Shown: positions 6,164 through 41,750 of the stretch, piece by piece
How positions within the stretch are numbered: position 1 is the stretch's first letter
How the letters are laid out: each line of letters begins with the position of its first letter
Origin: an uncultured virus (IMG/VR IMGVR_UViG_3300028377_000002)
Taxonomy: Duplodnaviria > Heunggongvirae > Uroviricota > Caudoviricetes
Virus record (IMG/VR): IMGVR_UViG_3300028377_000002
Strand: one strand, 5' to 3'
DNA length: 64,000 nt
The notes under the pieces: model-generated
Database searches by the model: none
What the model was told of the DNA's origin: nothing
Seen by the model: only the letters and a program-made list of their open reading frames with translations
Translations under genes and position numbers: made by a program

Positions 6164-9100
6164 CTAACTTTCTAAGTTTTTTGTAATCCTCAACATCGAT
6201 TTCAATGCCAACTAAATTCAATTCTTTTTCTATTTTATTGGCCTTACCTTCATCTTTATTAAGTTTAGCTTTAACCCACATGTTATATATCCACCCTTCA
6301 AAGTTTTTGTCATTTTTACTTGGATTTTCATTTAAATACCAATAACTTCTTTGTTCAGCCCAAGGCTCGTACTTTAATATATCCTCTACCGTACCTAAAT
6401 CAACACCCCATTTCGCTGAGGTTACAAATATATTTGGATTTCCTTTATCGTCGTCATGTACATTAAATTCAGCGAATGCTTCCAATTGCTTAGGTATTTT
6501 AGAAGACCCTTTCATTGTATTAATATCTTCAACTTCTAAACGTTTTATTGTGGATAAAAACATATTTTTATCGTATTTAATACCTTCAATTCTTTCTATT
6601 TCCTTTCTTTTATTATAATCATCAACAACTTCATTCCACTTTAACCCTAAATCTTCTAAATTATTAGGTACTTTTTTATTTCTTAACCAAAATTGGATTT
6701 CTTTATCCTCCATTGACATTAAATCATCATTATAGTCATCTTGGTCACCTTCTTTTATTGATGTTCCATTGGTTAATTGACATTGTGACTCAGTGAATAC
6801 CTTGAAATCACTTAATGTCATTTCTTTAGTCTTCTTATCCTTAACCATATCGACTATAATATCATCTCTAATTTCAGGACTAAAACAAACTAATAGAGGT
6901 TTTATTCTTTTATTAAAGTTATCCAAATATTTTGGTACATTATATTCTTCCGTTGTTAATTCTGGATTACCCTCAATTTGTTCAGCTGGAATCATCATAC
7001 AATTTAGATGTACGCTTCTTTTACCAGTTTCTTTATCAGTTTTAACTTTAACATCACCATGTGACTTTACAGTACCAGTATTTACATAATACATTGTATC
7101 ACCTAAATGAATGTCCACATCATTCTGAATAGCCAACTCCATGTGAGCCTTTCTAGCTTTATAGTTACCAGCTTTAGTCTTAGTTTTAGATTCCTTAATG
7201 TAAGTTGATTTAGACTCTTTAACATTAGATTTAGATGCTATTTTCATCAGTGGTACCCTAAAGTTGTAAATATCGTCAACAGTTTTATTATATAGTTGAA
7301 TGAATTTGTAACCATCACCATTTAATAAATATTTAATAGCTTCTGATAAAAATTCTTCAATGTATATCGGCATTTTAGATGACTTAATTGTATTACCAAC
7401 TAATTTAATCTTACCATCGATAAGGTTAGCATAATTTTTCCTAGAGAAATTAATTGTTGATTCACAAATATCATCAATATCTAGGCCCATACGGCCAATC
7501 ATATACAATTCATTGTACTCATCAACAACTGCATCTAAACCAACAGACTCAACACCTTTTTTGCTTTCCGTAAATCTATGCGTACCTTTAGGTGTATATC
7601 TAAACTTGTCAACATCTTTAGGTATTGCAAAGTTGAAACCATCAGTGTTCTTTAAGTCAACACCTCCAATTCCACCAACAAAAGTACCATCTTCTGTTGA
7701 AATGTCATACACATATCCATTAGGACATCTATTTTTTATAACCTCATTTAACCAAACTTCATCACTTTTCATTTTAGTTTTATTAGTAAAAGATGAGTTA
7801 TTTCTATTTTTATTTTTTAATCTAAATGAGATGAAATTTTCTTTATCTTTTATAGTTCTTATTTTTTTATCAATACCTAAACAATCCATAATATACCCAA
7901 TACCAGACATAGCAACTTGAGATTTCATACCAATATCTGAACAATCTTCTAAATAATCACCATAACCATCTGAGGAAAAAACACCATTTAAAAAAGCTAA
8001 TTTATTTTTATCACTAGCATTTAATATGTAATACGGAATTTTCTTCTCTCTGTATGAAGTATAAAAATCTTTACTAAATTTAATACTTACGTATTTAGAA
8101 TAACTAACTAGATTATAAACACCACTAGATTTTCTATGGTCTTTAATCTTTGTTTTAATATCAAATTGTTCTTCTATGATTAATTGTAATTTAAGTAATT
8201 TATCATAGTTAGATGAAGAAATTTTAAAAACACTTCTTTTCCCTTTATTAATATTTATTTCACCAGTTCTTTTAGATTTATAATATTGTTTTCTATCACC
8301 ATAAGTAGCGGAACCATCACCTAAAAAATAACCATATAGAAATGATACTTCTTCATCTAAATATTCAATACCTTCATTATTAAAATTTTCAACATTTCTA
8401 ACATCTAATAAATCACCTCTTTTTAAATCTTTAGGTTTTATTTGTTTAGTATTTTGAAAAAGTGAGTGGTCTTCGGTTACACAAACTAATTTATCCTTTG
8501 TAGAGACTCTATGTATTTTTTTATCTGTTTTATGACGATATATATAATTAATTTCTTTCCAACCATTTACGGTTAAGACTTCATATGGTTTGATTTCATA
8601 ATCTCTAAGTTCTTCTTCATCAATAAACTCTGAGTTAGGATTATATAAATCAGAGATTGGTAGAATATCTATCTCTTTCGTTTTTTTCCACCTGATAAAT
8701 ATTGGAGTGTTAAAGGTTACTGAATCTCCAACTAAAGGTGTGAATCCTTTATCAACAAAGAACCAAACCATTAATCTTAGATATTGTCTACCTCTACAAG
8801 TGGTTTCTTCAGCACATTCAATATCACCCCAGTTAAATATGTTAGGTGCGCCCAAAGAACCAAAAAATGAGTTACCTAGAATTTTAATAGGTAATTGTTT
8901 CTTATCATACGTACTTGCTAAAGCTGAGTTTTCTTTTATTTGTTTTTTAGCAAAACCCAACTCTTCCTCAGTCATAGATTCACCTTTCGTATCTATAATC
9001 TCTTGGAATGTTCTAACTTCAGCTTTATGTTCATTCATTAAACCTTTAAACTTATCCCTTGTATTTGCAATATAAAGTAACATACCTTTCATTACATCAC

Positions 9101-18043: not shown

Positions 18044-20467
18044 ATGAGTACAAACAACAGAGTATTTGTAAGTCCAGGGGTTTACACATCAGAAAGAGAC
18101 ATATCATTTGTAACACGTCAAATAGGTGTTACAACAGCTGGTTTGGTAGGTGAGACTACAAAAGGTCCAGCTTTCCAGCCTATATTCGTTTCTAATTATA
18201 ACGAATTCACTTCATTCTTTGGTGGGACAAACCCAGCCAAATTCCCTGATACTGGATATCCTAAATATGAGTTACCTTATATAGCTAAATCATACTTCAC
18301 AAGGTCTAATCAATTATACGTAACTAGGGTATTAGGTTACTCAGGTTATGACGCTGGTCCAGCTTGGGTAATTAAAGGTAGTAATGACCAAGTTGTTGCT
18401 CTTATTAGAAGTAGAGGTAGTTACGATGCTAGTGAAGATTTAATCTTCGACGTAGGTATCGATGATTTAGTGATTGACCCTGCTATTAATGATATTGATA
18501 GTGACGCAAAGGCCGAATTTGTATTAAGTGGTACAACTGGTGGTAATGACTTTACCTATAACGTATCATTTGACTCAACTAAAAAGAATTATTTACCTAG
18601 GGTTTTAGGTCAATCAAATTCAGATGGTCAAGCACCTATATTTGTTGAGAGTATTTATCCAAATATGTTAGATTCTTTAATAGATGATAGTACCATTACT
18701 GGTATTAGTACTACTTTAGATAAATTTGAAACTGAATTCGAAGATTATAAAACCAAATATAGACCTGCTATAACTCCATGGGTTGTATCTGAGGTTAATG
18801 GTAATATTATTAAAAAATTATTCAGACTTATTACTATATCAGATGGTAATGGTGCCAATTCAGAGATTAAAGTATCTATTGAAAATATAAGGCCTAATGC
18901 TAGAGAATTTGATGTTAGAATTAGAGCATTCAATGATACTGATGCTAATCCAGTAACTTTAGAAAGATTTTCTAGATGTACAATGGACCCAACTTCAGAT
19001 AATTTTGTTGGTAGAAGACTTGGTACTTTAGATGGTTTTTATTCTTCAGTATCTAATTATGTGTTAGTTCAATTAGATGAAACTGAGGAAACTTCAGATT
19101 CATTCCCAGCTGGATTTACTGGTGTGCCTACTAAGGCCTTTGGTGCTTCTTTAGATGCTCCATCAGTTAATTATAATCAAGCTTATGGTCAGTTCGATAA
19201 AGTAAGAAAAATTTACTTAGGTCTTTCAGATACAGTAGGCATAGATGGAGATTTCTTTAAATTTATAGGGGCTGATGACGAGGCTACTAGTGGTATGACA
19301 AACGGTTTCCATATGGACGTTGACGCAAGTGGTGCTACTTTAGATAACTTCACATTTGTTTATGGAGATTCTAATTTCCAAAACGATACTCAATTAGAAT
19401 TATCTGGTAACAGTTACACTAGAATACAATCAAGAAAATTCACAATGGCACCTTTCGGTGGTTTTGATGGATGGGATGAGTATAGAGAAGGTAGAAGTAA
19501 TACAGATAGTTTTGTATTAGGTCAAACCAATAGTAATGAAGCTTTAGCTAGTGGTGCTATTGCTGAAATGGCTCTGGAAAATGGTGACCAAGGAACGACA
19601 GCTGATTACTACGCATATCAAGAAGCTATAAGAACATTTAATAACCCTGAAGACACTAACGTTAACGTGTTTGCAACACCAGGTATTGATATATTTAATC
19701 ACACTAATCTTGTTGAATCGACTATTGAAATGGTTGAGGAAGAAAGAAGTGATTCTATCTATATTACAACAACACCTGATTATGAGAATGAGACGGTAAT
19801 TACTGTAGATGATGTTGTTAATAGATTAGACGCTACAGGTATTGACAGTAGTTATACTGCAACATACTGGCCTTGGGTACAAGTTAATGATACAGATAAT
19901 AACGTATTAGTATACTTACCACCTACAAGAGATGTTATAACTAACGTTGCTTTAACCGATAATGTATCATTCCCATGGTTCGCTGTGGCTGGTGTACAGA
20001 GAGGTATTGTAAACGCAGTTAAAGCTAGAAAGAAATTAACTTTAGGTGAAAGAGATACTTTATATGAAGGTAGAATCAACCCTATCGCTACATTCGCTTC
20101 TGAAGGAACAGTTATTTTCGGTAATAAAAACTTACAAGAAAAAGAAACTGCTTTAAACAGACTTAACGTAAGAAGATTATTACTACAGGCTAGAAAATTA
20201 ATATCTGCTGTATCAATCAGATTATTATTCGAACAAAACGATGAGGTTGTAAGAAATCAATTTAAAACATTAGTTAACCCTATTCTAGAAAATATTAGAA
20301 GTGAAAGAGGTCTTACTGATTTCCGTGTAGAAGTTGATAACTCACCTGAGTCAATTGATAGGAACGAACTTAACGGTAGAATATTCATTAAACCAACAAG
20401 AGCGTTAGAATTTATAACAGTAGAATTTGTTGTACAAAATACTGGTGCATCATTCGAAGATGTATAA
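18044..20467 (+). CDS. Tail sheath protein (T4 gp18-like)
   Basis: VSPGVYTSERD, GLVGETTKGPAF, WFAVAGVQRG, RDTLYEGRINPI, LNVRRLL, FEQND, IKPTRALEFI. Confidence 0.95.
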   Translation: MSTNNRVFVSPGVYTSERDISFVTRQIGVTTAGLVGETTKGPAFQPIFVSNYNEFTSFFGGTNPAKFPDTGYPKYELPYIAKSYFTRSNQLYVTRVLGYSGYDAGPAWVIKGSNDQVVALIRSRGSYDASEDLIFDVGIDDLVIDPAINDIDSDAKAEFVLSGTTGGNDFTYNVSFDSTKKNYLPRVLGQSNSDGQAPIFVESIYPNMLDSLIDDSTITGISTTLDKFETEFEDYKTKYRPAITPWVVSEVNGNIIKKLFRLITISDGNGANSEIKVSIENIRPNAREFDVRIRAFNDTDANPVTLERFSRCTMDPTSDNFVGRRLGTLDGFYSSVSNYVLVQLDETEETSDSFPAGFTGVPTKAFGASLDAPSVNYNQAYGQFDKVRKIYLGLSDTVGIDGDFFKFIGADDEATSGMTNGFHMDVDASGATLDNFTFVYGDSNFQNDTQLELSGNSYTRIQSRKFTMAPFGGFDGWDEYREGRSNTDSFVLGQTNSNEALASGAIAEMALENGDQGTTADYYAYQEAIRTFNNPEDTNVNVFATPGIDIFNHTNLVESTIEMVEEERSDSIYITTTPDYENETVITVDDVVNRLDATGIDSSYTATYWPWVQVNDTDNNVLVYLPPTRDVITNVALTDNVSFPWFAVAGVQRGIVNAVKARKKLTLGERDTLYEGRINPIATFASEGTVIFGNKNLQEKETALNRLNVRRLLLQARKLISAVSIRLLFEQNDEVVRNQFKTLVNPILENIRSERGLTDFRVEVDNSPESIDRNELNGRIFIKPTRALEFITVEFVVQNTGASFEDV

Positions 20468-20485
20468 TATTAATAGATGAATAAT

Positions 20486-20512
20486 AAAACCCTTCTTTAA
20501 GAAGGGTTTTTT
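20486..20512. terminator. Bidirectional intrinsic terminator
   Basis: aaaacccttct-tta-agaagggtttttt after the sheath gene, overlapping the stop of the convergent endonuclease. Confidence 0.8.
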
Positions 20513-22164
20513 GGTTTATACGAATAAGTTATAGTACCACAATCATAAATCCTATAAATTTTATTTTCTAACATTACTTCACGTTCAGTCTTACCTTCAA
20601 TATTATAACCCATTTCTTTTAATTTTGATTTTCTGAAATTAAACCTATGAAAACGTTCTTTATTTATTATATACCAGTAATTTGGTCTATTAATGTGAGT
20701 TTTAGTAAATTTCAACATTTCATACATATTACCTTGACTCCACCTTCTATCTGCATAACTTCTAATTTCATTTGGTTCATATTCTTTAATGAAATGTTTT
20801 AATAATTTACTGGCGCCACCTATTACACTAACATCTAATTTATTGCAAAACCTAGATAATTCATAGCCATCATATTTCCCACCAACACCACTTCTAGGTT
20901 TATTAAAGTTCATTAAACTAACCAATTCATCATTATTATATAACCCTAAGTTTATTGATGCATTTACAGAACCTTGTAAATGGTTTTTATTTAAGAATTT
21001 CTTAGATTCACTAAATGGTATTTCTTTTATAAAACACTTTCGGGCGTACATTTTATTCTTAGTCAAACCTAATATGTTTTTTAATCTAGACTTTGTGATG
21101 TTTTTTTTACTTAACCATTCATCTTCAAAAATATGTATTAATTGTATCCCCTTGTTATTACAATCATTAGTTTTATCATTATGGTAATGTTTACTTAAAA
21201 ATAATTCAGAATGCCAATATAAACCGTTAAATTCAATAGCAATTCTAAGTGAGGGAATGTAAATGTCTATTTCTTTACCATTTAAAATTTTTCTACTCGA
21301 AGTAATGGTTTTTAAATGTAATTCATTTGTGATGAAATCATTTATTTCATTTTCAAATGATGATACTATATAAGTACATTTATTACAACCATGACCAGAT
21401 AAGTGGTCATATGGTAATTGTTCAAATTCACCATGTTCTGGACATATTATTTTTACTTTTGAATGTGAATTAATATAATCAACATTCAAATAACTATATT
21501 TATTGTGGTGTTTTTTATTACTTCTAACAATAAAATCATTCTCATCTAAAGATAATTTATTTTTAGTTTTATTAATACTACAAGATTTACACCCCTTACC
21601 CCTAATATGATTATACGGTAATTGATTAAACTTACCATGTTTTGGACATGTTATAGTTACTTTAGTCTGTGAATTAACGTATTTAACTTCATCGTAACTA
21701 TAATAACCTTTATGTTTTTTATTTGCTTTAAATAAAAAAGCTTCTATTGTTTCATTCTTATTATGTTTACCTAAGAAACATTTCTGACAACCTGATTTAA
21801 AATGTCCATTTGGTAATTGTTCAAATTCACCATGTTCTGGACATATTATTTTTACTTTAGTCTGTGAATTAACATATTTAACCTTAGAATAATCATAATA
21901 ATCTCCGTGTTTTTCATTAGATTTAATTAAAAAATCTTTTATTTTTTTAACAGGACCACCACATAACACACACTTTTTATACCCCCTTAAATGCTCTGTC
22001 GGTGACTGTTCAAAGGTTATGTTATGTATATTACAAGTTAGTTTAACTAATGAATCACTATTAACATAATTAACATTAGAGTAATTAAATTGCGCCCCAT
22101 ATTTTTTTTTTGATTTAATAATAAAATTTAATTCCTTATTTTTAACTTTTTTTTGTTTTTCCAT
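20497..22164 (-). CDS. Free-standing Hef-like homing endonuclease (Cys/His repeats + Vsr-like nuclease + GNAT-like C-terminus)
   Basis: Four YxYxxVxYxNSxxKVxIxCPxHGxFxQxPxxHxxGxGCxxC-type repeats; EIDIYIPSLRIAIEFNGLYWH...IHIFEDEW; ELSRFC...GGASKLL...SYADRRWS; likely start MEKQKK at 22164. Confidence 0.7.
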   Translation of the reverse strand: MEKQKKVKNKELNFIIKSKKKYGAQFNYSNVNYVNSDSLVKLTCNIHNITFEQSPTEHLRGYKKCVLCGGPVKKIKDFLIKSNEKHGDYYDYSKVKYVNSQTKVKIICPEHGEFEQLPNGHFKSGCQKCFLGKHNKNETIEAFLFKANKKHKGYYSYDEVKYVNSQTKVTITCPKHGKFNQLPYNHIRGKGCKSCSINKTKNKLSLDENDFIVRSNKKHHNKYSYLNVDYINSHSKVKIICPEHGEFEQLPYDHLSGHGCNKCTYIVSSFENEINDFITNELHLKTITSSRKILNGKEIDIYIPSLRIAIEFNGLYWHSELFLSKHYHNDKTNDCNNKGIQLIHIFEDEWLSKKNITKSRLKNILGLTKNKMYARKCFIKEIPFSESKKFLNKNHLQGSVNASINLGLYNNDELVSLMNFNKPRSGVGGKYDGYELSRFCNKLDVSVIGGASKLLKHFIKEYEPNEIRSYADRRWSQGNMYEMLKFTKTHINRPNYWYIINKERFHRFNFRKSKLKEMGYNIEGKTEREVMLENKIYRIYDCGTITYSYKPKNPS

Positions 22165-22233
22165 ATATTTATAATAAAGCCACAAGGCTAATATACTAAT
22201 AAATATTATAAAAAACAAAAAAATAAGAAAATT

Positions 22234-22722
22234 ATGTCAGATTTATTGATGAAAATGCCTGTACCTTACGAACCTAAAAAGAAGAATAGATGGTTAATGA
22301 GGTTCCCAGCTGAGTTGGGTATACAACAATGGTGGTTACAGTCAGCATCACGTCCTTCAATCACACAAAATGAAGTTGAGATTCCATTCTTAAACACATC
22401 TACCTACGTAATTGGTAGATTTACTTGGGATACTATTGAAGTTGTATTTAGAGATGCCATTGGACCTTCTACATCCCAAGCTATTATGGAATGGGTTAGG
22501 TTAACTTCTGAGTCTGCTACTGGTAGACAAGGTTATGCTGCTGGATACAAAAAAGATGTTGAGCTTGAAATGTTAGACCCTAGTGGTGTTGTTATTGAAA
22601 AATGGCAACTACAAGGTACTATGTTAACCAATGTTGGATTTGGTGACTTATCAATGGATGATGACGGTATTGCAGATATCACAGCCACTTTAAGGTTTGA
22701 TAGGGCAATATTATTATTCTGA
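22234..22722 (+). CDS. Tail tube protein (T4 gp19-like)
   Basis: EPKKKNRW, GRFTWDTIEVVFRD, YKKDVELEMLDPSGVVIEKWQLQG, FGDL, TLRFD. Confidence 0.9.
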   Translation: MSDLLMKMPVPYEPKKKNRWLMRFPAELGIQQWWLQSASRPSITQNEVEIPFLNTSTYVIGRFTWDTIEVVFRDAIGPSTSQAIMEWVRLTSESATGRQGYAAGYKKDVELEMLDPSGVVIEKWQLQGTMLTNVGFGDLSMDDDGIADITATLRFDRAILLF

Positions 22723-22757
22723 TTTCTATTACTCACATTATCAGCTATTTATAAAAT

Positions 22758-22836
22758 AAATAAACGGTTTAGGACCGATTATAGCTCACGGCTATTTAAA
22801 ATCACTTAAGTGTCGCTACCTAAGTGATTTTTTTTT
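22758..22836 (+). ncRNA. Candidate small structured RNA / attenuator (three hairpins, ends in terminator)
   Basis: TATTTAT at 22746; hairpins CGGT-ttagg-ACCG, ATAGC-tcacg-GCTAT, AAAATCACTTA-agtgtcgctacc-TAAGTGATTTT plus U-tract. Confidence 0.5.
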
Positions 22837-22844
22837 AACTATAT

Positions 22845-23213
22845 ATGAAAATACCGATTGTAAAGTATAACGACACACTATTATCAATTATAAGTTTATT
22901 CGCACCGATAAAAGGAATTACTATTTTTCCTTTTATCATAATAAGAGAAAGGTTTATTAATTATCATTACCCAAAGGCCACTGATAAATTACTTAATCAT
23001 GAGAAAATACATATCGAACAACAAAAGGAGATGTTAATTTTACCCTTTTTTGTGTTTTATTTCATAGAATGGTTAGTGAAATTGTTTATCTATGGGTCTA
23101 AATCTTATAGAAACTTAAGTTTTGAAAGAGAAGCTTATAAGTTTGAGGGGGATATGACATATTTATCTAATAGAAAGCGTTATGCTTTTTTAAAATACGT
23201 TATAAAAGAATGA
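22845..23213 (+). CDS. Hypothetical protein with HExxH motif and hydrophobic segment
   Basis: GITIFPFI, LLNHEKIHIEQ, FFVFYFIEWLVKLFIY, YRNLSFEREAY. Confidence 0.6.
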   Translation: MKIPIVKYNDTLLSIISLFAPIKGITIFPFIIIRERFINYHYPKATDKLLNHEKIHIEQQKEMLILPFFVFYFIEWLVKLFIYGSKSYRNLSFEREAYKFEGDMTYLSNRKRYAFLKYVIKE

Positions 23214-23362
23214 GAAAACAAGATAAAAAGAAAAACATGGATAAGGTTAACAAAAAATTCCAAGATAGGATGAATGGAGTTGACGAAGAAAAAGATAAAG
23301 AAAAGGATAAATTTAAATTTGTTAAAGACATTTATCCTGAATTAAGTAGAATAATAAACTAG
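23210..23362 (+). CDS. Small charged hypothetical protein (50 aa), not in ORF track
   Basis: ATGA overlap with upstream stop; MRKQDKKKNMDKVNKKFQDRM...; ends 1 nt before the next ATG. Confidence 0.55.
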   Translation: MRKQDKKKNMDKVNKKFQDRMNGVDEEKDKEKDKFKFVKDIYPELSRIIN

Positions 23363-23363
23363 T

Positions 23364-23744
23364 ATGGGAAAGAAACTTAAAATTACAGAAAAACAATTAA
23401 AAACTCTAAAAGAAAACTTACTTAAGGAAGATAAATTTAGTTGGGATGGTAAATATGCTAATGAAGAAGATATTAACGAACATCACGACGGTGAGTTTCC
23501 AGAGTCTCTAATGAATAAATCTCTAGAGCAATTTTTAGATGAATTATCTAAAAAAAGTGAAACAGATTACGATAAAGTTGAAGATATAATCGCCAAGTAT
23601 TTTGCTACATCTAAAGATGAAGGTTATACTGGATTACCTAGTGATTTAGAGGTTGTGGATGAAGATAATAAACCAACAGACGCTAAATCTAATCAATGGT
23701 TTTCAGATTCAGATGGTGAAAGAGTAACCGACGGAGTGCATTAA
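23364..23744 (+). CDS. Hypothetical acidic protein, possibly internal head protein
   Basis: N-terminal KKLKITEKQLKTLKE leader then acidic body. Confidence 0.45.
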   Translation: MGKKLKITEKQLKTLKENLLKEDKFSWDGKYANEEDINEHHDGEFPESLMNKSLEQFLDELSKKSETDYDKVEDIIAKYFATSKDEGYTGLPSDLEVVDEDNKPTDAKSNQWFSDSDGERVTDGVH

Positions 23745-23809
23745 TATTTTAAAAACTTTACTTTTTCATATTTATTATTATATAACATACTAAAAATAAG
23801 TTAATAAAT

Positions 23810-24922
23810 ATGGAGAAGAAACCAAATGTTTTCCCAACATCGTCTAGGATGACTGATGAAATGAAAGAAGCTAACGAGATGGGTAGTAAAATAGCCGAAG
23901 AAGTTAGTGAACAAGAAGGTATAAGTAAGACTGAAAAAAGCGATAGAGAGAAAGAATACGCTCAGAAAATGAATCAGGAATCTCTAGATATGTTAGAGGA
24001 ACAGATGAGAAAGAGAGATGAATTAATCGCTAAAAGAAAAAATGATGGTGATGTTGGTGGTAGTGATGATTTTAGTGGTGAGGAAACCGCTAAAGTTACT
24101 TATTCAGACGCTGAGAGTAAACCACATAAAAAATTAGAGGTACCAGAAGATAGATTCGAAGAGTTAAGTAGACCTCAAGAGGATTCACCTTATGATGTAA
24201 TTAAATTACCTAGTGAAGGGTTACTTTACCCTAATCAAGGTAGTTCAATAAAACTATCTTATTTGAATGCTAGTGATGAAAACCTTATTACTAACCCTAA
24301 TCTTTTAAGGTCAGGTAAGTTTCTAGAAGTTCTTATCAATAGAAAAATGTTGGGTACTGATTTAAGGTACAAGGATTTACATGTCGGTGATAGAAATGCA
24401 ATCATGATTTGGTTACGTTCTACTGGGTATGGTTCAATGTATAACGTTATGTTAACTGACCCAAATGATGATTATAAAGAATTTGAAACTAAGATTGATT
24501 TATCTGAGTTACCAATTAAATACTTAGATGAAAAGCCAGATAAAAATGGTCACTTCAAATATAAATTACCATTATCTGGTAAAGAGGTTACATTTAGAAT
24601 GTTAAGCGTTGGTGACGTTAATGATATTGAAGACCACATAGAGGAATTAGTTGAGGAAAAGGGTTCAGATTTTGCTGACGCTTCAACTTATACACTTAAA
24701 AAGCAGATATTAGCCATTGATGGTGATAATAACTCGACTGTTGTTAATAACTTCATTGAAAGAGGAATGAGATTAGGTGATGTTAGAAGTTTTAGACAAC
24801 ATTTAAACAAAATTGAATCAGGCATTGATATGAATATTACTGTCGGGACTCCTGGGGGTGGGTCCATAACTACGTTTCTTCCCCTTAACGGAAACTTTTT
24901 TTGGCCTGACACATCACTATAA
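23810..24922 (+). CDS. Baseplate hub/tail assembly chaperone (gp26-like; gpG equivalent)
   Basis: IKLPSEGLLY, DENLIT, GDRNAIMIWLRSTGYG, YKLPLSGKEVTFRMLSVGD, C-terminal NFFWP; upstream of tape measure. Confidence 0.7.
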   Translation: MEKKPNVFPTSSRMTDEMKEANEMGSKIAEEVSEQEGISKTEKSDREKEYAQKMNQESLDMLEEQMRKRDELIAKRKNDGDVGGSDDFSGEETAKVTYSDAESKPHKKLEVPEDRFEELSRPQEDSPYDVIKLPSEGLLYPNQGSSIKLSYLNASDENLITNPNLLRSGKFLEVLINRKMLGTDLRYKDLHVGDRNAIMIWLRSTGYGSMYNVMLTDPNDDYKEFETKIDLSELPIKYLDEKPDKNGHFKYKLPLSGKEVTFRMLSVGDVNDIEDHIEELVEEKGSDFADASTYTLKKQILAIDGDNNSTVVNNFIERGMRLGDVRSFRQHLNKIESGIDMNITVGTPGGGSITTFLPLNGNFFWPDTSL

Positions 24923-25130
24923 AAAAGATTTATTAGAAGAAATATATCTTTGTATGAAGTATTTAAATATTTCATACGGTGATTTAATGAAAATACCTAC
25001 ATACGAGAGGCGTTTCTTTATAGTGACATTACAAAACCAAATAAATAAGACAGAAGAGGAAGCTGAAGACACACCTAAAGTAACCAAGACTGGTAAATTT
25101 ACCAGTACTAGGTCATATTCACCTAAATAA
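24897..25130 (+). CDS. Frameshift extension of the chaperone (gpGT/gp51-like), alternatively a small ORF from ATG 24954
   Basis: +1 frame reads FFGLTHHYKKDLLEEIYLCMKYLNISYGDLMKIPTYERRFFI...*, beginning on the T7 run at 24896-24902. Confidence 0.6.
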   Translation, partial: FFGLTHHYKKDLLEEIYLCMKYLNISYGDLMKIPTYERRFFIVTLQNQINKTEEEAEDTPKVTKTGKFTSTRSYSPK

Positions 25131-25156
25131 AATCCCTTAATCAAGGGATTTTTTTA
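25129..25156 (+). terminator. Intrinsic terminator
   Basis: aaaatccctt-aatc-aagggatttttttt directly after the extension's stop. Confidence 0.8.
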
Positions 25157-25236
25157 TTATTTGATATTTATTAAGTAGAATACCAAATACTTTTAATATA
25201 TTTATAACATGGTATTTAAATAAAAATGATTAAATT

Positions 25237-26484
25237 ATGAGTTTAAACGAAAGAATGGTAAACATAATGAAAGTTATGTTAATGGAAGTTGAACTTAAGA
25301 AGACCTTCAGTACAATTAGTAGTGGTGATAAAATAAATATCATTGAGGTTGACGACAATAAATATAGTTTTATTGTTCAGTCAAATATCTCTGGTAGGGT
25401 TATAATGAAGGATTCAAGTGAGAAATCCTTAGGTAAACTATTTGTTTTAGAAAAAGACTCATTAAAAAAGAACGAATTAACGATATACATATACGATAAC
25501 AGCGCTGTTAGTAATGATTTCAAAGGAAAATCATTATCTATAGAGGTTAAATATATCAGTGTATTAGATGATAAAACTGGTGAGCTTCAAAGAATTGATA
25601 TAACTTCTGATGAGAAGACTATGAAACAAAAAGAAGAACTATCTAGAATTGATGAATACACTAGAATTATTAAAGAACTAGATAAGGGTGAAATGTTGAT
25701 TATAACAACAGAAACCGACTCAGAAAAAGATAGTATCGTAAACGACTTAGTTTTTAAAGTTGTAGATATCAAGAAAAATTGGTACGTTTTAAATTTAGTT
25801 AAAGTTAGAGGTAATTCTGAAGGTGATAAATCTGTTGAAAGTGATAAAATTCTTGATGTTGTTAGGTCTAAGGAATTATACATTGGTAAAGGTGGATTCT
25901 TTAAGGTAGTTGATAACAAAGTGACCTTAGATTTAAGATTCGGTAAAAACTATAAAATACCTATTAAAGGTATTATCGACGTTGATATTGAAAATGATAA
26001 TGTTGGTGATACTTCAGATGATAAAACTGTAACTGATAAGGATGATTTTACTGATTGGCTTGATAATAATCCTCAATATAAAAATATAATTAATAAAACA
26101 CCTAATTTTTTTGAAAAACTTAGCGGAGCCTCACCAAAAGGTGTGTTTCAATTACAAAACATGTTAAAAAAAGCAGGTACTAGTAACTCTTATTTAACTA
26201 AGAATAAATATGTTGTGATAAAATTATTAGATGGTAGAATAGAGGTTGATTTATCTAATAAACTTTTAAGTAAAGCTGGTAAAACTTATGAAGCTAAAGT
26301 CACTGATGATAGAACTCTTAGAATAGGTGATAGAAGAAAAGGTTATTGGGAAATTGAGTTATTAGATGAATATGAAGATAAAACTTATAAAACTAAAGTT
26401 AGTTTCTGTTACCCTAATGGAACTTGCGACCTTAAAGCCAACGATGCTAAGATTAAAATATTAAAAGTTAAAAATAATAGATAA
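25237..26484 (+). CDS. Hypothetical protein
   Basis: 415-aa ORF, translationally coupled to tape measure; no motif recognised. Confidence 0.6.
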   Translation: MSLNERMVNIMKVMLMEVELKKTFSTISSGDKINIIEVDDNKYSFIVQSNISGRVIMKDSSEKSLGKLFVLEKDSLKKNELTIYIYDNSAVSNDFKGKSLSIEVKYISVLDDKTGELQRIDITSDEKTMKQKEELSRIDEYTRIIKELDKGEMLIITTETDSEKDSIVNDLVFKVVDIKKNWYVLNLVKVRGNSEGDKSVESDKILDVVRSKELYIGKGGFFKVVDNKVTLDLRFGKNYKIPIKGIIDVDIENDNVGDTSDDKTVTDKDDFTDWLDNNPQYKNIINKTPNFFEKLSGASPKGVFQLQNMLKKAGTSNSYLTKNKYVVIKLLDGRIEVDLSNKLLSKAGKTYEAKVTDDRTLRIGDRRKGYWEIELLDEYEDKTYKTKVSFCYPNGTCDLKANDAKIKILKVKNNR

Positions 26485-39855: not shown

Positions 39856-40550
39856 TGAAAAAGTACACAAACGAAGATAATAAGAGAGATAAGGAAAGGT
39901 TTAACTTATTAATGGAGTATGACTTTTATATTGGTGAGGAAGAAGACAATTACGAACCTGATGGTGAAATGATAAATGAAGAGCCACCAGAAGAAGATGT
40001 GGAATCTACTGATGAGGTCGAACCAGAATCTGAAGTTGAACCTGAAATGGAACCAGAAGCCGAAGTTGAACCAGAAGCCGAAGTTGAAGTTGAACCTGAA
40101 CCTGAAATGGAACCTGAACCTGAAATGGATGATGAAGTTGAATTAGATGTAACTGATTTGGTACAAGGAACTGAAGAAGCACAGAATTCAGCTGAAGAAG
40201 CCAATAAAAAAGCTGAAATGTTATTAAGTAAATTAGACAATCTAACTAATTCTTTAGATAAAATGTCGGCTATGAATAACAAGATAGATGACTTAGAGAA
40301 TGAATTTGAGAAAAGAAATCCGACTCCTGAAGAAAAATTAGAAATGCGTTCATTAAGTTCTTATCCTTATAACCTAAAATTAACAGATTTTTGGTCTGAA
40401 AAAGAAGGTAATTATGACGTTATGAATCAAGATAAGGATGGTGAGAAAGAATATGTATTAACTCAAGATGATGTGGATAGAGATTTTAATCCAATGGAGA
40501 TTAAAGACTCTTTTAAAGACGAAGATTACCAAAGTAATCAAAGCTTTTAA
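39855..40550 (+). CDS. Acidic Glu-Pro-repeat coiled-coil protein (possible scaffold/internal protein)
   Basis: EPESEVEPEMEPEAEVEPEAEVEVEPEPEMEPEPEM then coiled coil. Confidence 0.5.
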   Translation: MKKYTNEDNKRDKERFNLLMEYDFYIGEEEDNYEPDGEMINEEPPEEDVESTDEVEPESEVEPEMEPEAEVEPEAEVEVEPEPEMEPEPEMDDEVELDVTDLVQGTEEAQNSAEEANKKAEMLLSKLDNLTNSLDKMSAMNNKIDDLENEFEKRNPTPEEKLEMRSLSSYPYNLKLTDFWSEKEGNYDVMNQDKDGEKEYVLTQDDVDRDFNPMEIKDSFKDEDYQSNQSF

Positions 40551-40630: not shown

Positions 40631-40661
40631 TTGTAATAACTCATTTTAATTAGTATCTTTG
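40631..40661 (+). promoter_or_regulatory. Bacteroidota-type promoter of ssb/replication operon
   Basis: TTG at 40631, TATCTTTG at 40654-40661. Confidence 0.6.
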
Positions 40662-40799
40662 GCTCAGTTATTTTAATGTAAATCATTAGGTAGCGTAACA
40701 CGATTACCACCCGTGAATTATAAGTGGTGGTGATACAAATAAAGACTCCGACATATAAAAAACGAAGGTCGGACATTTACTAATAACAAAATTATAACT

Positions 40800-41750
40800 A
40801 TGAGTAACGAGAAAAAAAATCCGTTAGAAGCGATGTTAGCTCAGTACGAGACATCGACTTCAAAATCGAGTAACAACTCATTTGACAAAACAAATTACTT
40901 CACTACGTATTTACCAGATGGTATTGAAAGTGCAGTTAAAAAAATTAGAATTTTACCACCAGAAGAAGGTAAAACACCTTTCGAAGAAGTTCACGTACAC
41001 AGTGCTAAAGTTGACGGTAAAAACCGTAAATTCACTTGTATTAAAGAACTGAATGACGAAGATTGTCCTTTCTGTGAAGCTAGAGAAGAACTACTTTCTA
41101 CGGGTGAAAAAAGTGATGAAGAATTAGCAAAGAAATATAAAGCTAGGTTAATGTACATCGTAAGAGTTATTGACAGAGAAAACGAAGACGAAGGTATAAA
41201 ATTCTGGAGATTTCCAATTAACTACAAAAAAGAAGGTATCTTTGATAAAATAATGGCAACCATTGGATTATTAAAAGAAGATATCACAGACCCTGAAGTA
41301 GGTAGAGACTTAATTCTTAACATAGTTAGAGTTAAAAACCCAAGAGGTGGTACTTACCCAATGGTTAACTCAATCCAAGCATTCGATAAAGGGCCTCTAA
41401 GTGAGGATAAAAAACTAGCTAAAGGCTGGTTAAGTAACAATAAGAGTTGGAAAGAAGTTTACTCAGTAAAAGGTTACGATTACTTAAAAATTGTAGTCTT
41501 AGGAAAAATCCCAATGTGGAGTAAGAAGCAAGAAAAATTTATTGCAAAAGAAGACTTAGAAGCTGAAAATGAAGATTCAGAAGACTCTAACAGTGAATTA
41601 GAAGACCAAATCACAATGGGAGGTGGTAGCAAAAACATTGATACCAAAAGCACTTCAGATGTTAAAACAGAAGAGTTAACTGAAAGTGAAAATAGTTACG
41701 ATACCGTAGCTGAAGAAGAAGATGAAGAAGAAGATGATTTACCATTCTAA
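40800..41750 (+). CDS. Single-stranded DNA-binding protein (T4 gp32-like)
   Basis: IRILPP, HVH...TC...DCPFCE Zn site, VRVIDR, DITDPEVGRDL, acidic tail ending DDLPF. Confidence 0.85.
   Translation: MSNEKKNPLEAMLAQYETSTSKSSNNSFDKTNYFTTYLPDGIESAVKKIRILPPEEGKTPFEEVHVHSAKVDGKNRKFTCIKELNDEDCPFCEAREELLSTGEKSDEELAKKYKARLMYIVRVIDRENEDEGIKFWRFPINYKKEGIFDKIMATIGLLKEDITDPEVGRDLILNIVRVKNPRGGTYPMVNSIQAFDKGPLSEDKKLAKGWLSNNKSWKEVYSVKGYDYLKIVVLGKIPMWSKKQEKFIAKEDLEAENEDSEDSNSELEDQITMGGGSKNIDTKSTSDVKTEELTESENSYDTVAEEEDEEEDDLPF

Follow-up and report, generated by a model that had tools for sequence, protein, structure and literature searches.

The interval 22757-22842 of the DNA analysed here, a stretch of 64,000 nucleotides from an uncultured tailed virus (referred to as the window), is, judged from its letters and its relatives, one member of an uncatalogued and strongly conserved family of small folded RNAs. 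Taking all the evidence as a whole, the best explanation, which we consider probable, is that this interval encodes an uncatalogued three-hairpin phage RNA that acts in trans and at the same time forms the terminator of the tail-tube transcript, and that a complementarity between its third hairpin and the leader of the single-strand DNA binding protein (ssb) operon is coincidental. An initial annotation of the same letters had described the interval as a small structured RNA with an exposed loop that matters, and this part of the description was borne out by the finding of a conserved family with the invariant loop UCGCUAC, which is contained in the very loop that had been singled out, GUGUCGCUACC.

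The tail tube gene occupies positions 22234-22722 on the + strand and was assigned from its match to the PHROG tail tube protein family phrog_4542 (E 1.4e-27). Behind it we recovered both elements that had been noted from the sequence, namely a TATTTAT at 22746-22752 and a series of three hairpins followed by a U-tract, the latter in the letters as well as in the fold. The TATTTAT is part of the motif TATTTATA (22746-22753, + strand), a candidate late promoter located 11 nt before the ACGG of the RNA. Hairpin 1 (22765-22777, +) has a CGG/CCG stem and the loop UUUAGGA, hairpin 2 (22781-22795, +) has a 6-bp stem with a small loop and looks like a structural spacer, and hairpin 3 (22798-22831, +) has a long stem carrying the conserved loop AGUGUCGCUAC, with the invariant UCGCUAC at 22813-22819. 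A run of nine U residues (22828-22836, +) gives hairpin 3 the form of an intrinsic terminator. The next gene (22845-23213, +), encoding a protein of 122 aa assigned to phrog_15610 “protease” (E 1.1e-25), starts 9 nt past the U-run, and the intervening letters hold no promoter-like motif. When the stretch 22723-22844 was folded, an energy of -21.2 kcal/mol was obtained (z = -2.5), and 3 of 200 shuffled sequences folded as well. It is clear that the hairpins are far more than chance, since the interval matches a covariance model of the family with 88.3 bits and the stems of the family covary (see below).

As a terminator, hairpin 3 is only in part of the usual kind. Its stem of 11 + 3 bp is directly followed by the U9 run, as expected for a stem-loop with a U-run, but the stem is A/U-rich and the loop is large, where intrinsic terminators are expected to have a G+C-rich stem and a short loop. 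A consensus scan of the region 20000-26000 for at least 3 G-C pairs and a loop of 3-8 nt returned three sites, a hairpin at 20486-20510 on both strands and one site at 25129, and hairpin 3 was not among them. Among tail-tube relatives in viral contigs, where 599 of 600 pattern-matched stretches were confirmed as such, most of the other loci carry an unrelated hairpin and T-run at this place, and a minority carries the same three hairpins.

For the family as a whole, the covariance model R1 was built from 21 sequences collected after pattern scans. The window matches R1 with 88.3 bits over model positions 1-84 (E 1.1e-23, spanning 22757-22842 on the + strand); this was the only match at E <= 1, and a second copy was not found in the window. 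The three helices and both of the invariant loops that define membership are all present, the loops in the forms CGG-UUUAGGA-CCG and UCGCUAC. R1 also matched 8 of 80 tail-tube loci, and among loci derived from the patterns it gave 38 matches in one set of 100 and 56 in another 100, and altogether 50 distinct full-length family sequences were obtained. The family stems were examined in two alignments, A2 with 98.8% of the cells paired and 16 of 19 pairs changed on both sides (slid controls were 22-54% paired), and A3 with 96.8% of the cells paired and 10 of 19 pairs changed on both sides; as both alignments had been fitted to the structure of the model, these figures favour that structure. In A2 all six pairs of hairpin 2 change on both sides, and all ten stem pairs of hairpin 3 have compensatory changes, while the pairs of hairpin 1 show little or no variation across all the distinct rows. 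Thus the stems of hairpins 2 and 3 have turned over completely and are yet still paired, and the loops do not vary. U-G pairs are frequent in the stems and therefore only the + strand fits the structure.

Across the family, the hairpin 1 loop NUUAGGA is 7 nt long in 37 of the 50 distinct members, 6 nt in nine and 8 nt in four. Hairpin 2 keeps its 6-bp stem with a small loop that is often UUCG, and hairpin 3 has a stem of 8-12 bp with the loop AGU(N)UCGCUAC. The core of the latter reads TCGCTAC in 43, TCGCTGC in four and TCGCTAT in three of the 50 members. However, the collection patterns demanded the invariant motifs, which makes the “invariance” of the loops partly circular. The main form of the whole hairpin 3 loop is AGUNUCGCUAC, and 10 of the 50 members have GUUCGCUAC instead; with so few members reading GUUCGCUAC, a derivation of hairpin 3 from a T-loop was rejected as the main reading. 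Directly after hairpin 3 a T-run was counted in 36 of 50 members by a strict column count, and on inspection most of the other 14 have one too. A divergent second copy was seen in one of the phage genomes (G008:C1:266696-266780, - strand, locus L366), scoring 29 bits, with UUUAGGG in loop 1, UUCGCUAC in loop 3 and a U-run. The UUUAGGG of this copy indicates that the patterns did not capture the full breadth of the family.

We did not find the family in the collections that were searched. With Rfam 15, the best score for the window positions 22600-22950 at E <= 10 was 20.9 bits, where the gathering score is 63, and for ten diverse member loci searched at E <= 1 no family matched on the element, tRNA being the only credible family seen. 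A description of the three-hairpin RNA was likewise not found in a literature search on small RNAs of phage tRNA clusters, and of 82 papers containing a 9-mer of the motif letters the 10 that were listed are on unrelated subjects and lack the 12-mer. A blastn search of GenBank phages with positions 22000-24000 gave no match, and the 23 metagenome runs that contain the stretch are all DNA and come from lake or salt-lake water.

The RNA is carried by large T4-like phages of fresh water, about 150-360 kb in size, which form a clade and have tail-tube proteins that are 34-64% identical to that of the window. Strong copies occur once each in five records (G002, G003, G007, G008, and G009), of which G002 is 360 kb with terminal repeats, G007 is 325 kb, G008 is 292 kb and G009 is 148 kb. 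In four related partial genomes (36-54% complete) no match to R1 was found, and some phages of the clade may therefore lack the RNA. The position of the RNA in the genome differs among carriers and subclades, and the genes upstream from it are unrelated between subclades. In 26 of 28 representative loci the RNA and the upstream reading frame share a strand, and the RNA usually starts 5-20 nt past the upstream stop codon. With this spacing it would normally be transcribed as the tail of the preceding gene and end at its own terminator. At L167 and L189, where the upstream gene is on the opposite strand, a TATTTAT motif is found 25-45 nt upstream of the RNA. A scan of genome contigs gave ten stretches, three of which are true members located on small contigs (2-13 kb) of metagenome-assembled genomes (MAGs) binned to unrelated taxa; these are probably phage DNA and hence give no host information. 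A further match of 21 bits in a Latescibacterota MAG chromosome (L435, 643799-645055) has both invariant motifs and an unpaired hairpin 3; the search pattern probably picked it up by chance.

In four of 38 representative loci (L146, L175, L194, and L201) the RNA sits among clustered tRNA genes, in the same orientation as these and in a tRNA-sized slot. In L146, L194, and L201 it begins immediately behind a tRNA, and in two of these, L194 and L201, another tRNA begins within 4-8 nt of its end; these two members, with a tRNA next to them, have no U-run. ARAGORN detected no tRNA genes in the window, and here the RNA does not occupy a tRNA slot. Matching the four loci to the Rfam tRNA model recovered 15 neighbouring tRNAs and never the element, which does not form a cloverleaf.

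As mentioned above, the RNA shows complementarity to the leader of the ssb operon, and on this basis it had been proposed to modulate, as an antisense RNA, the ssb-recA-exonuclease-helicase transcript and to couple tail assembly to replication by way of an RNA. The gene for the gp32-like single-strand DNA binding protein is located at 40800-41750 (+; phrog_1192, E 2.4e-12), and TATCTTTG at 40654-40661 (+), together with a TTG at 40631-40633, is a candidate -7-type promoter element of the operon. The relatives' ssb leaders keep an equivalent TAGTATnTTTG/TAGTATAATTG. This type of promoter (TTG ... TAnnTTTG) and the A-rich, Shine-Dalgarno-free gene starts are features that we take to be reminiscent of Bacteroidota.

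The letters on which the proposal was built are correct. The reverse complement of 22810-22830 reads AAATCACTTAGGTAGCGACAC, the leader at 40680-40701 (+) reads AAATCATTAGGTAGCGTAACAC, and the two form 6 + 10 + 4 pairs, where the ten contiguous pairs are flanked by six and four as described; TATCTTTG ends at 40661, 19 nt before the target, in agreement with the distance of about 19 nt that had been given from the TAnnTTTG. Within the window the 10-mer that they have in common, TTAGGTAGCG, is present at 22814-22823 (-) and 40686-40695 (+) and nowhere else. The seed was also said to cover the exposed loop, and this holds insofar as it uses six of the seven invariant loop bases (CGCUAC), but 11 of its 21 bases, about half of the seed, are locked in the 11-bp terminator stem.

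Is the complementarity clearly beyond chance? By exact matching it is not, and by energy it is borderline. Among 1000 dinucleotide shuffles of the 21-nt seed, 44% gave an exact antisense match of at least 10 nt on the + strand, and the real seed has three such antisense 10-mers, at 6805, 44549, and 40686. The duplex between seed and leader, at -24.2 kcal/mol, is the best in the window for the 21-nt seed, the next unrelated site reaching -20.3, and only 1 of 57 shuffles was as good. A comparison with shuffled sequence, which had been suggested as a check, therefore goes against the pairing for the 10-nt match and is borderline for the energy. When the folding of each RNA on its own was counted, the dimer gain was -11.8 kcal/mol, matched by none of 100 shuffled leaders, yet in a comparison with 418 other windows of 152 nt this ranked second of 419 behind a site in a coding region (-13.7 at 39977). 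Local alignment gave a score of 28 at the ssb leader against 27, 27, 27, and 26 elsewhere in the window. Full-length duplexfold gave long meaningless duplexes, with -39.6 at ssb against -41.2 and -39.3 elsewhere, and the seed and dimer-gain measures were used instead. The pair was picked after the whole 64 kb had been read, and all of these nominal statistics thus overstate the pairing.

Conservation was the second check that had been suggested, and here the proposal failed. Five records with the RNA and ssb on one contig and two complete genomes, representing five related lineages, were available for the comparison, in which the seed of each phage was paired with its own ssb leader. The energies were -12.0 (three near-identical contigs), -7.6, -10.9, -11.8, and -10.5 kcal/mol against the -24.2 of the window; a comparable pairing was kept in none of the five lineages, and GTAGCG does not occur in any of their ssb leaders. 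The target at 40680-40701 lies in a lineage-specific spacer of the ssb leader that is identical only in near-identical contigs (L110-L112 and G001) and absent or different in L102-L106, L113-L115, G007, and G008; in L113-L115 the spacer is missing and in L102 and L105 another sequence stands in its place. The nearest record, G001, has an identical ssb leader but lacks the tail-tube region and is therefore uninformative about the RNA. Since the pairing is unconserved, the target lies in a variable spacer and the statistics are borderline and post hoc, the antisense link is unsupported, and the match to the ssb leader, which is private to this phage lineage, has most likely arisen by chance. A conserved link between tail assembly and replication was not found in the five lineages.

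One could still imagine a late small RNA that binds 40680-40701 in trans with the loop and the 3' arm of hairpin 3 and tunes the ssb-UvsX-exonuclease-helicase transcript, the target having been gained recently in this lineage. In addition to the points above, the 7-base complement of the invariant loop is hardly ever seen in the 5' regions of genes, with 0, 1, 0, 1, and 0 sites in positions -100 to +30 of the gene starts in the window and four genomes, out of 2-7 occurrences per genome or window. We regard such a regulator as improbable.

The ssb leader contains a more persistent feature right downstream of the proposed target, namely two hairpins at 40702-40774 (+; 40702-40736 and 40744-40774) which are kept in relatives with 50-65% identical ssb proteins, where their stems show compensatory changes. 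They do not belong to the three-hairpin family and gave no match in an Rfam search of the leader. Between these hairpins and the AUG the relatives also keep an A/U-rich run. T4 gene 32 is described as controlling itself through a pseudoknot at the 5' end and an A+U-rich stretch behind it (PMC3014915), and as far as this account goes the leader here is similar in being long, with conserved covarying hairpins and then an A/U-rich stretch up to the AUG. The hairpins here lack an Rfam match, and a binding by the ssb protein is putative. By this comparison the hairpins suggest a self-control in the style of gene 32 instead of an antisense link.

Returning to the three-hairpin RNA, its likely mode of production can be read from its surroundings. 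A ATATTTAT-type motif is located 19-72 nt upstream of many structural genes on the + strand, including the sheath and tube genes and those at 23810, 25237, and 29221, and positions of ATATTTAT(A/T) include 17999, 22166, 23769, 25199, 29195, 39634, and 49802. In the whole window there is no overall excess of the motif, with 19 found against 20 expected. On the other strand the ATATTTAT(A/T) core reads TATAAATA, which we take to be the T4 late promoter. The placement fits a role as a late promoter without being proof, and we treat the motif as a candidate that may be active. The tail-tube transcript would be expected to run into the RNA element, and hairpin 3 and the U9 run would form a putative intrinsic terminator of the late sheath/tube transcript. 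If they do terminate this transcript, the RNA would be made as its 3' end, or alone from the ATATTTAT-type motif at 22746.

The RNA that we propose to be made in this way is about 70-80 nt long and has three consecutive hairpins, where the short CGG/CCG stem of hairpin 1 would present the invariant (N)UUAGGA loop, hairpin 2 would be a purely structural stem, and the long variable stem of hairpin 3 would present the invariant UCGCUAC loop. A stable small RNA may be released by termination or, in the tRNA operons, by tRNA processing, after which it would act in trans with its two invariant loops docking one conserved partner, which would be a protein or else an RNA of the host. A phage mRNA start region is an improbable partner, because the loop complements are rare and unenriched there. 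The low numbers given above for the hairpin 3 loop near gene starts indicate that this loop is no general seed for phage leaders, and the complements of either loop showed no enrichment in positions -60 to +10 of the gene starts in the window and four phage genomes.

Several other explanations have to be weighed against this trans-acting RNA. The simplest of these is a purely cis-acting 3' end, where the hairpins do nothing but terminate the tail tube mRNA and shield it from 3' exonucleases. The element is indeed located 40 nt past the stop of a presumably highly expressed late gene and ends in a hairpin with U9, at the corresponding spot most tail-tube relatives carry an ordinary terminator that is unrelated to it, and most family members begin a few bases past the upstream stop codon. 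A generic stabiliser should recur at many genes, however, and we find one strong copy per genome of 148-360 kb; the upstream genes are unrelated between subclades, and the members in tRNA clusters have no mRNA to protect and in two cases no U-run. Because of the single copy, the unrelated upstream genes and the tRNA-cluster members, a role in cis only is unlikely, and the invariant loops on top of fully turned-over stems point to a sequence-specific recognition beyond stability. A site that works at the level of DNA, such as a signal for recombination, homing or replication with no RNA involved, is very improbable. It would agree with an insertion-rich region, where 24 of 80 related loci have an HNH endonuclease-like gene between the sheath and tube genes, and with a genome position that differs between subclades. 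But the covarying stems contain many U-G pairs, which are strand-specific and would be A-C mismatches on the other strand, the orientation follows the flanking genes and tRNAs, and the element ends in a U-run.

The occurrence in tRNA clusters raises the question whether the RNA is a tRNA-derived look-alike, in which hairpin 1 copies the anticodon arm of tRNA-Leu(UAG) with its loop YUUAGGA, hairpin 2 takes the position of the long variable arm and hairpin 3 is a stretched T-arm, so that an RNA cut from tRNA operons could act, as a decoy or an adaptor, on a factor reading that loop. It would explain the tRNA-sized slot between tRNAs in three of the four cluster loci and the adjoining Val/Leu genes in L146 and L194, and the phage tRNA-Leu(tag) in L146 has an anticodon loop, CUUAGGA, that matches the common 7-nt form of the hairpin 1 loop, N-UUAGGA. 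The GUUCGCUAC of ten members is moreover close to a T-loop, and the two best-aligning of the 33 tRNAs of G007 are Leu(aag) and Leu(tag). Against this, ARAGORN and the Rfam tRNA model are blind to the element yet detect every neighbouring tRNA, an acceptor stem and a D-arm are absent, the hairpin 1 loop varies from 6 to 8 nt, and the main hairpin 3 loop, AGUNUCGCUAC, is not a T-loop. The Leu alignment scores of 25 and 24 are barely above the 23 for Asn, Glu is best in G002, and the RNA is present in genomes with one or eight tRNAs and no tRNA-Leu. The look-alike is thus possible but weak, and we consider it rather unlikely. A broader idea, which is no more than a speculation with a small chance of being right, sees a new class of phage small RNAs made from tRNA operons or mRNA 3' ends, whose loops jointly act on a conserved factor, for example by decoying an enzyme or a nuclease which recognises the tRNA-Leu(UAG) anticodon loop (the YUUAGGA being identical), and where UCGCUAC may also target the ssb leader in this phage.

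Compared with known systems, the three-hairpin RNA resembles the intrinsic terminators behind phage late structural genes in that hairpin 3 and U9 are found about 100 nt past the tail-tube stop on the coding strand; unlike those terminators it has two more conserved hairpins in front, a loop sequence that is constant across phages with unrelated stems, and some family members inside tRNA clusters with no U-run. The RNAC and RNAD of phage T4 are longer than the three-hairpin RNA. According to a review of T4 they are small RNAs transcribed from the tRNA region with unknown roles, and by the same account no small trans-acting RNA of T4 had been functionally characterised (PMC3014915). Going by that description, to which the comparison is confined, the family is similar to RNAC and RNAD in being small RNAs of T4-type phages found together with tRNA genes, here in the four tRNA-cluster loci out of 38, and differs from them in that most of its members are located outside tRNA clusters, behind protein genes and with a putative terminator of their own. 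With the trans-acting antisense small RNAs of phages it shares the short hairpin structure and a conserved, exposed loop able in principle to pair with a leader located far away, but the pairing with the ssb leader is unconserved and the loop complements are unenriched at the gene starts here. The closest of these systems are the intrinsic terminator, whose form hairpin 3 has, and the RNAC and RNAD of T4.

Collectively, the letters and their relatives argue for a real, uncatalogued and conserved phage RNA that has the form of a tail-tube terminator. It belongs to a compact covarying family with one strong copy per genome and with loops that are identical while the tail proteins have diverged to 34% identity, and such a family is a well-defined object for finding out what phage RNAs of this sort bind. 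The comparison also corrects the attractive notion of an RNA link between tail assembly and replication, which lacks support as a conserved feature.

Two further observations were made around the tail tube gene. In the subclade of L004 and L085 a small ORF of about 50 codons is found between the tail-tube gene and the RNA; the N-terminal half of its product is hydrophobic, and its stop codon overlaps the conserved AAAATAAACGG at the start of the RNA. Upstream in the window, the HNH homing-endonuclease-like gene between sheath and tube is located at 20497-22218 on the - strand, encodes 573 aa (phrog_559, E 2.8e-138) and is closed off by the two-way terminator at 20486-20510. Its homologues in the 24 of 80 related loci lie within 1.5 kb of the tube gene, some of them with a second copy downstream of the tube.
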